Of a DNA stretch of 64,000 nucleotides, positions 12,447-47,568 are shown in pieces. How positions within the stretch are numbered: the stretch's first letter is position 1; each line of letters begins with the position of its first letter. The notes under the pieces are model-generated. The model searched no databases. It had not been told where the DNA came from and worked only from the letters and a program-made list of their open reading frames with translations. Source of the stretch: Myxococcota bacterium (GTDB taxonomy: Bacteria > Myxococcota_A > UBA9160 > JAFDDA01); assembly GCA_965228475.1 (NCBI GenBank), contig OZ245817.1, forward strand, positions 3,968,001 through 4,032,000. The letters run 5' to 3'. The translations under genes and the position numbers were made by a program.

Positions 12447-13498
12447 AGCTTCGGCACGCGGAAGTGCAGCCCTACCGGCTTCCGCTCTCGCGGCCGCTCG
12501 CGACGTCGCGCGGCCTCGTTCGAGAGCGGTGCGGCGCTCTGCTTCACGTGCAGGAGGAAGGCGGCCAGCGGGGCGTCGGGGAGGCCGCGCCCCTCGCGGG
12601 CTTCGGCGGCGAACCGCTCGAGGAGACGCTGGCGGAACTCGAACGCTTCGCCGCGTCGCTCCCGGGGCGTTCGATCGACGAGGCCGAAGCCGTCGCCCGC
12701 GAGTTCGCACGGCGCGCGCCGGCCGCCTTCGCCGCTGCCGAGACCGCAGCGGCCGACCTGCGCTCCCGGGACGCGGGGCTTCCCCTTGCCGCGTGGCTCG
12801 GCGCGAAGCGGTCCGTCCGCGCGGTTCCGGTGAACGCCCTCCTCGCCGTCGAGCCCGGCGCGGCGTGGATCCCGGCGGCGCGGGCGGCGATCGCCCTGGG
12901 CTTCCGCACGCTGAAGCTGAAGCTCGGCATCCGGCCGTGGCCCGAAGAGATCCGCCGGGTCCGTGAGCTTCGCACGGCGCTGGAGCCCGGCATCGCCCTG
13001 CGCATCGACGTGAACGGGGCATGGCCCGAGACCGAGGCCCGCCGCGCACTCGGGGAGCTCGGCGGCCTCGGCGTGGAGTTCGTCGAGCAGCCCGTAGCCG
13101 CCGAGGCGATCGATGCCATGGCTCGCCTTCGAAAGGAGGCACCGGTCCCGATCGCCGCCGACGAATCCGTTCGCGGGGCGGACTCCGCCCGGCGGCTGCT
13201 CGACGCGGGCGCGGCCGACGTGCTGATCCTGAAGCCCTCCTGGCTCGGCGGGCCACGCGAAACGCTGCGAATCGCGGAGCTCGCACGTGACGAGGACATC
13301 GACGTCGTCGTGACCTCGGCCCTCGACGGCGCGATCGGACGGGCCGCGGCGCTTCACCTCGCGGCCGCCGTCGCGAGCCCGTACGCTGCGGGACTCGCGA
13401 CGGGAGGACTCTTCCGAGCGGACCTCGCCGAGCTCGCGGCACCCAGCCGGGGACGCCTCGCGCTTCCATCGGGTCCAGGCCTGGGCGTCCGGCCGTGA
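12443..13498 (+). CDS. menC: o-succinylbenzoate synthase (enolase superfamily)
   Basis: KLKLG, RIDVNG, EQP, ADES, LKP motifs; GTGA overlap with menA. Confidence 0.88.
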
Positions 13499-14973
13499 GT
13501 GCACCGGCGACGAAGCGAGCCCCGTGGCTGATCGAACGCGCGCAGCGCACGCCGGAACGGACCGCCGTCGAGTGGCTCGGCGGCGCGGTCTCCTTCGAGC
13601 AACTTGCCGAGCGCACCCTGCGCCGGGCCAGCGCGCTGCAAGACCGGGGCGTGCGGCGGTCCGATCGCGTGGCGGCGCTCCTGCCGAACGGTCTCGACTT
13701 CGTCGAGCTCTTCCATGCGGTCGACGCCCTCGGAGCGACCCTCGTTCCGCTGAACGCGAGGCTCACCGTCCCGGAGCTTCGCTTCCAGCTCGCCGATGCC
13801 GAGCCTCGGATCCTCACCCAGGGAACCGACGCCGCCGGGGAACGCGCCAGGGAGGCGGCCGCTCGAACCGGGATCCCCTCCGTCCCCATCGAGGCGCTTC
13901 GTTCCGAAGGGGCGCCCGCGCTCGAGACGACCCCGGAGGAGACTCCGGTCGCCCTCCTCTACACGTCCGGAACGACCGGCGAGCCCAAGGGCGCGCTGCT
14001 CTCCCGGCGCGCCATGGCCGCGAGCGCCCGAGCTTCGTCCGAGCATCTTGGGACGGGGCCCGAAGACCGCTGGCTCGCCTGCCTGCCGCTCTATCACGTG
14101 GGCGGGCTCTCGCTGCTCGTGCGCAGCGCCCTCGATGGCAGCCCACTCGTCGTGCACGAACGCTTCGACGCCAGCGCGGTGGCCGCCCGCCTGGCCGCTG
14201 GCGACGTCAGCGGAATCTCCCTCGTGCCCACCCAGCTCGAGCGGCTGCTCGACACCACGCGGGACCGGACGGCGCCCGCTCCCCTGCGAATCGTGCTGCT
14301 CGGCGGAGCACCGGTCTCGACCGCGCTCGAGGCGCGCGCCGCGGCGGCGGGCTACCCGATCGCGCCGACCTACGGCCTGACCGAGGCCTCCTCCCAGGTC
14401 GCGACGCGTACTCCCGGGTCCGCGCGAAGCGGGCTCACGCCGCTCCCCGGGATCGCCCTCCGCATCCTCGACGAAGCGGGCCACCCGTGCGCAGCGGCGG
14501 ACGTCGGGGAGATCGCGGTGCACGGCGCGACCGTGATGAGCGGATACTGGCGCCGCGAGCCGGCGACGTGCGCGGTCCTCCGCGATGGCTGGCTGCGCGC
14601 GGGCGACGCGGGCTGGCTCGACGCCGAGGGCGACCTCCACGTCGTCGACCGACGCCGGGACCTGATCGTCTCCGGCGGAGAGAACGTCTACCCCGCCGAG
14701 ATCGAACGCGTCCTCGCAGGCCACCCCGGGGTCGAAGAGGCCGCGGTTCGCGGCGTGGCGGACGCCGCGTTCGGCGAGCGCCCGGTGGCGTGGATCGTCC
14801 CGCGCGGCGAAGGCGTCGATGCCACCGGACTCATCGCGCACTGTCGAAACGAACTCGCGGGGTACAAGATCCCGATCCGCTTTCACGCCGTCGAGTCGTT
14901 GCCCCGCAACGCCCTGGGCAAGCTCCTACGCCGCGCCCTCGAGGAGCCCTCGGCTAGCGAAGGCGCAGGCTGA
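13495..14973 (+). CDS. menE: o-succinylbenzoate-CoA ligase
   Basis: [36 protein letters not shown]; men operon context. Confidence 0.9.
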
Positions 14974-45755: not shown

Positions 45756-46331
45756 TCAGGCCCGGAAGGCCGTCTCGAGGACCTTGTAGACCTGCTCTTC
45801 CTCGCGGGAGACCTTGTTCCCGATCCCGAGGAACCCGCCGGCCGCCTCGGCGACGTCGCGCGCGCGGGAAAGGACGTCGCGCTTGAGGGCCTTGCGCTGG
45901 TCCGGCTCCATCTCCTCGCACAGCACGCCCACGTACTCGCGCCAGGCGGCCAGGAGCCGCGGCGGCGGCCGGTGATCGAGCCAGTCCGCGAGCATCGTTC
46001 CCGAGGGCGAGTCCGGCGTGAGCCCCTGGGCATCCGCGGCCTTCTGGATCGCGGCGCGCTCCTTCTCGTCCACCTCGCCGTCGGCCCAGGCCACCTCGAC
46101 GAGCGGCACGATCGTCATCGCCGTCAGGGTCTCGGCGTTGATCCCGAGCTCGACGAGCTTGTCGAGGACCGCTTCGTCGTGGATGCCCGAGGCCGCCCCC
46201 AGCTCCGCCTTCGCTTCGGTCGTCATCTTCTTCTGCCGCAGCTCCGCCGCCAGCCGCTCGTTCTCCTTGCGGAAGAACTCCTCTTCGAGCGCCTGCCGGC
46301 GATCCTTCAACACACCACCGTCCTTGGACAT
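45756..46331 (-). CDS. Hypothetical protein, TerB-like fold with charged N-terminal helix
   Basis: VAWADGEVDEKER, VAEAAGGFLGIG.KVS.EE; GAGGAGG upstream. Confidence 0.7.
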   Translation of the reverse strand: MSKDGGVLKDRRQALEEEFFRKENERLAAELRQKKMTTEAKAELGAASGIHDEAVLDKLVELGINAETLTAMTIVPLVEVAWADGEVDEKERAAIQKAADAQGLTPDSPSGTMLADWLDHRPPPRLLAAWREYVGVLCEEMEPDQRKALKRDVLSRARDVAEAAGGFLGIGNKVSREEEQVYKVLETAFRA

Positions 46332-46546
46332 CGAAACGCGCACCTCCTCTTGGGACGAGCATAACCGGGCACACCGCCGGGGAAAGCGAGCGCGGAACGG
46401 TGGCATTTCACCCCGAAACTGGGAACCGCACGGCCGGAGCTGCGCCTCAGGCGTCATTTTCTGCCGACCGCGTCCGCAAGGAACGTTAGGATCGCCGCTG
46501 TTGGCCGCGTTTCGCGCCAACGCCATGAGAGGAAAAGGGGGTCGAA

Positions 46547-46735
46547 ATGGCGGAAGACGTGCTGGTCGTGGCTTCGAAGCTCAAGGGCTACATCCGCGAC
46601 AAGTCCGGAATGAACACCTCGGCCTCGGTCCTGACGGCCTTGTCGGACCGGATCCGTGAGCTTTGCGATCAGGCCATCGAGAATGCCCGGAACGACGGCC
46701 GCAAGACCGTCAAGGATCGCGACTTCGGCGGCTGA
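46547..46735 (+). CDS. Bacterial histone-fold protein (Bd0055-type)
   Basis: VLVVASKLK.YI...GMNTS and A.NDGRKTVKDRD (RKT....D L2 motif); 62 aa; purine-rich SD. Confidence 0.88.
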   Translation: MAEDVLVVASKLKGYIRDKSGMNTSASVLTALSDRIRELCDQAIENARNDGRKTVKDRDFGG

Positions 46736-46815: not shown

Positions 46816-47568
46816 ATGCAGCTCCTTTCGGGCGCCCGCGCCGTCTTCTTCGACCTCTTCGACACGCTCATCCAGATCGATGAAGCGCGCCTGCCGCCCC
46901 TCAAGGTCGCGGGACGGCGTCTGCGCAGCACCGTTCCGATCCTCTACGAAGATCACGTGGCCGAACGCGGCATCGCGCGCGAGCGCTTCGTGGAAGCCCT
47001 GCGCGACACGATGATCGAGATCGGGCAGGAGAAGAAGCGCAACACCGACGAGGTGCCGGCGCTGGTGCGCTGGCAGCGCGTGGTCGCGCGGCTCGAGTTC
47101 GAAGACGGCGACGGCGGCGAAGCGCTCGCACACACCTTGACCGAACGCCACGCGCGCACCCTGGCCGAGGCGGCCATCCCGGTGCCCCGGGCACGCGAGG
47201 TGCTCTCGGCGGTTCGCGACCGCGGGCTCGACGTCGCCCTGATCTCGAACTTCGACCACACGCCCGCTGCGGACTGGATCCTCGAGGGCACCGGCCTCGC
47301 GGACCTGATCGAAAAGCGCGTGATCTCCGAGGCCGTCGGCGTCCGCAAGCCCGACGAACGCATCTTCCGGGAAGCGCTCGACCACTTCGAACACGAGCCG
47401 GCCGCCTGCGTCCACGTGGGCGACCAGGCCCGCGCGGACGCCTGGGGCGCGGGGCAGCTCGGGCTGCGCGGCGTCTGGATCAACCGTCACGAAGAGCCCT
47501 ATGCCGAAGAGGGCCCGCCGCCGGCGCTGGTGATCTCGCGCCTCGCCGACCTGCTCCAGCACTTCTAG
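46816..47568 (+). CDS. HAD-superfamily hydrolase
   Basis: FFDLFDTL, ISNFD, RKPD..IF, HVGDQ..AD. Confidence 0.9.
   Translation: MQLLSGARAVFFDLFDTLIQIDEARLPPLKVAGRRLRSTVPILYEDHVAERGIARERFVEALRDTMIEIGQEKKRNTDEVPALVRWQRVVARLEFEDGDGGEALAHTLTERHARTLAEAAIPVPRAREVLSAVRDRGLDVALISNFDHTPAADWILEGTGLADLIEKRVISEAVGVRKPDERIFREALDHFEHEPAACVHVGDQARADAWGAGQLGLRGVWINRHEEPYAEEGPPPALVISRLADLLQHF

Follow-up and report, generated by a model that had tools for sequence, protein, structure and literature searches.

A stand-alone dimer histone of the HBb type, probably an accessory DNA bender, in a Myxococcota genome that also encodes ZZ- and face-to-face histones

The closest known system to the gene described here is HBb (Bd0055) of Bdellovibrio bacteriovorus (PDB 8FVX, 8FW7, 8CMP, 9EZZ, 9F0E). 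According to one study, HBb is a 14-kDa dimer by SEC-MALS that binds the DNA backbone irrespective of sequence; it bends DNA and yields no MNase ladder (bioRxiv 2023.02.26.530074). A second study has HBb dimers sheathing straight DNA, ranks HBb 12th of 2,125 proteins in Bdellovibrio and maps the tetramer His of archaeal histones to HBb A48 (PMC10627809). The two papers conflict on the binding mode, bending in the one and coating of straight DNA in the other.

Other histones share parts of this architecture. HLp from Leptospira perolatii and HTkC from Thermococcus kodakarensis (PDB 9QT0-9QT2, 9F2C) have the alpha3-truncated fold, the RxTxxxxD motif and a short C-terminus; as face-to-face (FtF) tetramers they need an Arg at -6 and an Asn at -2 relative to the arginine of that motif, and dimers are without both. 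In ZZ-histones (e.g. D0LYE7 of Haliangium; PMC11390915) a closely related histone domain is combined with a ZZ domain. The same paper lists bacterial dimers for Myxococcota_A and FtF histones for Myxococcota, reports a second histone in half of the ZZ-bearing proteomes and describes the Bdellovibrio ZZ-histone as low in abundance (PMC11390915). As to HU, a further paper gives Leptospira an FtF histone and no HU, and Bdellovibrio HBb, a second histone and HU (PMC12701072).

The DNA analysed, referred to as the window, is a stretch of 64,000 nucleotides from a Myxococcota bacterium of the class UBA9160 and order JAFDDA01 (assembly GCA_965228475.1, contig OZ245817.1, positions 3,968,001 to 4,032,000). 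A 62-residue ORF in it had been predicted, from the letters, to encode a stand-alone bacterial histone. Translation gave 62 residues and a stop, identical to the protein originally read, within a 68-codon open frame whose 5' stop lies 6 codons before the ATG. Comparison with the same-genus ortholog over 60 codons gave a dN/dS of 0.17, so the gene is under purifying selection. The protein scored below the cut-offs of the standard profiles, with 16.7 bits for Pfam PF00808 (cut-off 21.4) and 26.4 bits for the NCBIfam archaeal histone model NF043032 (cut-off 50), and is therefore easily missed, as the original prediction had said. The features discussed below are collected in Table 1.

Table 1. 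Features of the histone locus (window positions) and of related genes elsewhere in the genome (positions marked C1)
Feature	Position	Strand	Basis and remarks
TerB/DUF533-like gene, 191 aa from ATG at 46331, divergent from the histone gene	45756..46331	-	Beside the histone gene in 3/3 family genomes; context only
Candidate -10 hexamer TAGGAT	46487..46492	+	Conserved in 3/3 family genomes; without a good -35
Shine-Dalgarno site	46534..46542	+	Pairing with the genome's own 16S 3' end, -12.1 kcal/mol
Bacterial dimer histone gene (HBb/Bd0055 type, alpha3-truncated, by sequence), 62 aa	46547..46735	+	Translation, alignment, model, dN/dS
N-terminal segment and helix alpha1 (residues 2-20): bacterial S10-K11 motif, K13, R17 (DNA-facing in HBb)	46550..46606	+	Model, alignment, bioRxiv 2023.02.26.530074
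Loop L1 (residues 21-26): N23, T24, S25, A26; half of the L1-L2 DNA site, by comparison with HBb	46607..46624	+	Alignment, model
Helix alpha2 (residues 26-49): dimer core L32, I36, L39; N46, N49	46622..46693	+	Alignment, model
Loop L2 and one-turn alpha3: D50, R52-K53-T54-V55, R58, D59	46694..46726	+	Alignment, 94 rows
HAD hydrolase, downstream	46816..47568	+	Context only
ZZ-histone gene	C1:2359417-2359934	+	N-terminal ZZ finger; probable GTG start; histone-domain match at C1:2359752
Tailed FtF histone gene, 72 residues, net charge +15	C1:4526890-4527108	-	Small-basic-ORF screen; basic tail, R(-6)/N(-2)
IHF beta gene	C1:2299852-2300160	+	PF00216; passes curated IHF beta cut-off
IHF alpha gene	C1:2437348-2437671	-	PF00216; passes curated IHF alpha cut-off

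When solved structures were searched with the sequence, Bd0055/HBb was the best match (8FVX and 8CMP, E 1.6e-12, 57 residues, no gap); HLp (E 3.6e-7), HTkC (0.0048) and HMfB (0.11) matched more weakly. Identity to HBb was 29 of 57 residues in the gapless alignment (about 51%), or 51-53% by Foldseek. An AlphaFold2 monomer model (mean pLDDT 87.6, 94-row alignment) placed helices at residues 2-20, 26-49 and 57-60, that is, a long alpha2, a one-turn alpha3 and no tails, and the loop-2 motif was present as R52-K53-T54-V55 followed by D59; both had been described in the original prediction. With this model as query, the five best Foldseek matches were all HBb (TMq 0.83-0.84), and HMfA and HMfB gave a TMq of about 0.7. 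The predicted Bd0055-type identity thus stood, and with HBb the closest relative by sequence and fold the protein would be expected, as claimed, not to form canonical nucleosomes. HMfA and HMfB share with it the histone fold, RKT and the RD clamp, but it has a short alpha3 and no tetramer His.

All the characters of sequence and fold that were checked for the bacterial dimer class were present. The alpha3 helix is truncated to the 3-4 residues of the alpha3 superfamily, alpha2 is shorter than in nucleosomal histones (by the gapless fit to HBb, whose alpha2 is one turn short), the sequence, by which the class is delimited through clustering, is closer to HBb than to HLp, and RKTxxxxD is accompanied by the basic residues K11, K13 and R17 of alpha1. 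The S-K motif, the extra Asp of the HBb type (D50) and the lack of the tetramer His are likewise common to HBb and this histone. The protein consists of the histone fold alone, with no extra domain: its orthologs are equally long, and the stop upstream of the ATG leaves no room for an N-terminal zinc finger of the ZZ type. The residues that define the other classes have been replaced. N46 stands at the position of the FtF Arg (R48) and D50 at that of the FtF Asn (N52), while N49 occupies the position of the archaeal alpha2 His of the four-helix bundle, the place of A48 in HBb. A basic tail is lacking too, in contrast to HLp and HTkC. Because the FtF tetramer residues are gone and Asn stands at the tetramer-His place, the protein falls into the bacterial dimer class; the short alpha3, with one turn in place of three, and the score under the NF043032 cut-off also set it apart from the archaeal nucleosomal histones. 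By sequence and predicted fold, then, the 62-residue protein is an alpha3-truncated bacterial dimer histone of the HBb type.

The DNA-contacting residues of HBb were transferred to this protein through the 57-residue gapless alignment. Eight of the 10 main contacts of HBb, as ranked by MD, were identical (S10, K11, K13, N23, S25, K53, T54 and R58); K16 of HBb is conservatively replaced by R17, and T8, part of its second DNA site, is lost to A9. The alpha2 core of HBb (L31/I35/L38) was retained as L32, I36 and L39, as were the RD clamp and the extra Asp. In the 94 aligned rows S10, K11, K13 and D50 were invariant (94/94), Ala replaced T8 in 94/94 and position 46 was Arg in 3/94, a conservation that is partly due to selection because the rows are the top matches of the query itself. 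This histone further differs from HBb in its near-neutral charge (net +1, pI 7.9, compared with +15 for the FtF histone of the same genome) and in ending 3 residues past D59. As a result of the low charge and the change of T8 to Ala, it may bind DNA more weakly than HBb does. That it has kept the fold and no longer binds DNA in bulk, or that the ORF is spurious, is hardly credible; the net charge of +1 would fit such a loss, but 1271 relatives at E <= 0.001 (all of the 1271 candidates, which were 34-109 residues long and left 605 representatives after clustering at 50%), the low dN/dS and DNA-facing residues that are invariant or nearly so in the 94 rows all speak against it.

A tetramer resembling the face-to-face type, held together by contacts different from the R/N pair and wrapping about 60 bp, was considered very improbable. 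The C-terminus is as short as in FtF histones, and the monomer model lay within an rmsd of 0.9-1.0 A of HLp and HTkC over 52-53 columns, compared with 1.8-2.5 A for HBb over 55-60 columns, so the modelled backbone would be compatible with it. However, R(-6)/N(-2), kept in 30 of the 30 FtF loci read in the order, are N46 and D50 here, and the sequence score was far higher to HBb, a dimer by SEC-MALS. Homodimeric DNA bending is the most likely behaviour because the FtF and archaeal tetramer residues are both absent. By analogy with HBb, the alpha2 helices of two chains would lie antiparallel and hold the dimer together; its L1-L2 loops, brought into pairs, and the N-terminal ends of alpha1 would then hold the DNA by its phosphate backbone, at minor grooves and whatever the sequence, so that the dimer would bend DNA, or coat it at high loading, and dimers would not stack into tetramers or nucleosomes.

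The role of the protein depends on the company it keeps. In this genome the FtF role falls to a different gene (Table 1), whose product had HTkC as its best solved match (E 0.002) and whose fold model was of low confidence (pLDDT 65, 12 rows). The distribution of the histones was surveyed in this genome and 40 others of its order, 41 in total, and each of the 41 matches that the dimer query gave was read; the counts come from relatives that are not independent, and several of the genomes are incomplete. A stand-alone dimer histone was found in 8/41, confined to two of 12 families (3/3 genomes in f1, the family of this genome, and 5/5 in f10); with this query the 10 other families gave none, leaving 33/41 without a copy, and 8/41 gave no match to the query at all. 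An intact ZZ-histone was present in 28/41, and two more genomes had a damaged one, out of frame in the one case and truncated at the end of a contig in the other. The FtF histone was found in 39/41, including all 8 with the stand-alone dimer gene, and the dimer, ZZ and FtF types occurred together in at least 4/41. In a phylum sample of 71 genomes a class-type FtF profile matched 12/13 genomes of the class and 0/58 outside it, and the dimer profile 12/13 and 3/58; the three outside matches were one ZZ-histone and two FtF-type histones missed by the narrow FtF profile.

Some irregular ZZ genes were seen during the survey. The ZZ-histones of family f9 (L150, G025:C86; L152, G018:C87) carry two tandem histone folds per chain, making each a ZZ pseudodimer, and several two-stretch matches among the dimer-histone relatives may be of the same kind. 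At L020 (G036:C327) the ZZ domain is out of frame with the histone domain, through either a frameshift or an assembly error.

The imbalance between the FtF histone (39/41) and the stand-alone dimer (8/41) is the reason for placing the dimer beside, rather than above, the FtF protein. Overall we favour, with reasonable but not full confidence, a stand-alone HBb-like dimer histone that most likely serves as an accessory HU-like DNA bender beside the FtF histone, the ZZ-histone and IHF. Its dimer state, DNA binding and bending are inferred from HBb; the accessory role, read solely from the distribution, is probable, and in this genome the dimer would work next to the tailed FtF histone, which is conserved more broadly and is the likelier candidate for the main chromatin protein of the class. 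The original prediction of histone-based chromatin in the lineage is therefore probably right in substance, although the gene responsible for most of it is likelier to be the FtF one.

The expression signals of the gene were examined next to this distribution. Its Shine-Dalgarno site, already named in the original prediction, is real and strong: only 1.8% of 4383 genes, called in the same genome with our own script, had stronger pairing, and the FtF histone gene reached -9.8 kcal/mol. The patchy distribution is thus no proof of low abundance, the dimer gene having the stronger site of the two. The predicted -10 hexamer fared less clearly. It lies where it was placed, and TA.GAT stands at the same position in 3/3 family genomes amid diverged intergenic DNA, but a sigma70 scan upstream of the gene returned 0 promoter-like sites because TAGGAT has no good -35 partner; it is a plausible candidate. 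The pattern TAnnAT was found upstream of 144/1713 genes with free upstream DNA and in 0.4% of 5000 coding controls. The hairpin past the histone stop did not outdo shuffled sequences (z -0.78), and the scan gave no terminator-like site at that place. By codon usage the gene stood at the 17th percentile of CAI and at the 94th of a log-ratio score near zero; the bias of the genome is weak, and the CAI of 32 reference genes spread from the 7th to the 99th percentile.

The strong ribosome-binding site, within the top 2%, and the conserved -10 candidate could belong to a dominant chromatin protein of the same family, one that took over bulk compaction where it was gained, as HBb is dominant in Bdellovibrio. 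The abundance rank of HBb in PMC10627809 sets a precedent, HU was not found, and the histone is 85% identical to its orthologs where six of its neighbours reach 64-83%. Against this, 33/41 genomes of the order manage without a stand-alone copy, the FtF histone is in 39/41 and in all 8 carriers, and the dimer is near neutral in charge. Dominance therefore appears unlikely, and the accessory reading is retained.

The relation to the ZZ-histone was also considered. The histone domain of the ZZ-histone of this genome is 56% identical to the dimer histone, a ZZ-histone being a feature shared with Bdellovibrio, and the dimer protein itself is without a ZZ domain. Its main function could be to partner the ZZ-histone, heterodimers putting the zinc-finger domain onto otherwise plain dimers in a variant-like system. 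Both genes occur in 4/8 stand-alone carriers, and a fifth has a ZZ-type piece at a contig edge; but a stand-alone copy is missing from 24/28 of the genomes that have an intact ZZ-histone, and 3/8 carriers, from genomes 81-95% complete, gave no ZZ match. The two genes lie 1.65 Mb apart, no separate ZZ gene was found beside any stand-alone copy in 88 loci scanned, and the ZZ-histone is scarce in Bdellovibrio according to PMC11390915. Such a partnership as the main function is improbable, and accessory bending by a homodimer is preferred to it.

The histone gene sits among housekeeping genes: thyA, folA, hsp33, a glyoxalase-like gene, the TerB-like gene, the HAD hydrolase and greA/B. A survey of orthologs and synteny located the orthologs in the 8 genomes given above and gave a conserved gene order within the family only. 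Over the 88 loci, neighbour matches came from two family genomes, and elsewhere only thyA/folA in one locus and a weak HAD in another were seen; the stand-alone copies of f10 have different neighbours, and a wider conserved neighbourhood was rejected. The 85% identity holds for both the same-genus and the same-family ortholog, the neighbour values being from the same-genus genome. Beyond the family, the nearest stand-alone relatives in the genome collection bore the labels Bdellovibrionales (81%) and Gammaproteobacteria (up to 79%), and the f10 copies, at just 66-69%, were farther; of the relatives with names, the nearest have Deltaproteobacteria or Myxococcota as their label. A quick tree (117 rows, 57 columns), which left out duplicates and fragments (L029, L030, L105, L110, L113, L154, L161) and loci L109-L143, grouped the histone with stand-alone histones drawn from several phyla and separated it from the ZZ paralog of its genome. 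As the relevant forks have only 82-88% SH-aLRT, the tree names no donor or single origin; lateral gain of the dimer histone gene is plausible from these sequences. Elsewhere on the contig, what we take to be the gene for ribosomal protein L3 stands alone at C1:4950846-4951490 (+), far from the S10-spc-alpha cluster (1646555-1660051), in which, by our own gene calls, L24 and S14 are presumably absent at their usual places.

The HU/IHF family was then compared with the histones. In this genome, 96% complete and on one contig, an HU profile and a lenient tblastn search added nothing beyond the two IHF genes of Table 1. A possible hidden HU at C1:3142857 (tblastn E 0.003) was rejected, as it lies inside a 390-aa ORF of efflux type. 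Among the 41 order genomes 79/84 PF00216 matches passed an IHF cut-off; the others were 3 contig-edge pieces and 2 divergent proteins of a single genome (G010), for which none of the NCBIfam models of HU or IHF gave a match at 1e-8. G010 gave no FtF match, and its two divergent PF00216 proteins are near-identical (L157:780-1118 (-) and L158:767-1102 (-)); a return to an HU-like protein is possible, with contamination as an alternative. In the phylum sample, exactly two PF00216 matches were found in 11/13 genomes of the class and in 3/58 outside. Of 6 outside genomes, HU was the best-scoring assignment for a protein in 2, the additional proteins were ambiguous in 3, and 1 had just IHF among 3 of its 4 matches. 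A strict phylum-wide rule of histone in, HU out was rejected; one of the genomes with HU (G057) also has an FtF-type histone. Loss of HU in the class is a fair reading, at best as one evolutionary event; a causal swap for histones would be a further step.

Several very lysine-rich H1-like ORFs were noticed in the same genome, at C1:1696157-1696558 (+) (133 aa, 49% Lys, net +87), 2380265-2380909 (-), 13158-13592 (+) and 608879-609229 (+). These are candidate additional nucleoid proteins.

Taken by itself the dimer histone gene is, by sequence, one more member of an already described family, in which it has more than a thousand relatives. The original description of it as probably uncharacterised applies to bench work only, the class being already listed for Myxococcota_A in PMC11390915. 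What is new here is the presence of a ZZ-histone and a tailed FtF histone in the same genome, with an HU/IHF family made up of IHF alpha and beta only; B. bacteriovorus, by comparison, has HU, and the FtF histone is a feature of this genome. In a literature search confined mostly to non-subscription papers, none was found that describes three alpha3 classes in one genome lacking HU, a combination that a supplementary table of PMC11390915 may imply, nor was any found on histones in UBA9160 or, under the nucleoid-associated heading, on histone-bearing bacteria lacking HU.

A more far-reaching reading is that the class runs its chromosome without HU on layered histones: a wrapping tailed FtF histone, a ZZ-finger histone and, in some families, a later-gained HBb-type dimer that would act as a free bender, in the part that HU plays elsewhere, and mix with the ZZ-histone into variant heterodimers. 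We regard this as tentative and on balance doubtful. Were it true, a single bacterium would have three histone classes that divide the work among them, somewhat as histone variants do, with very lysine-rich H1-like proteins in addition. Bench studies of bacterial histones have dealt with a single main type in each organism: in Bdellovibrio this is HBb, accompanied by HU, and in Leptospira an FtF histone, HU being absent. In the present case the dimer, ZZ and FtF histones share a near-complete, single-contig genome with only IHF of the HU/IHF family. The sharing of one chromosome by histones and the replacement of HU are both named as open questions in PMC12701072. The genome may thus be of more use than the gene alone for learning how bending and wrapping histones share a chromosome, and whether they replace HU.
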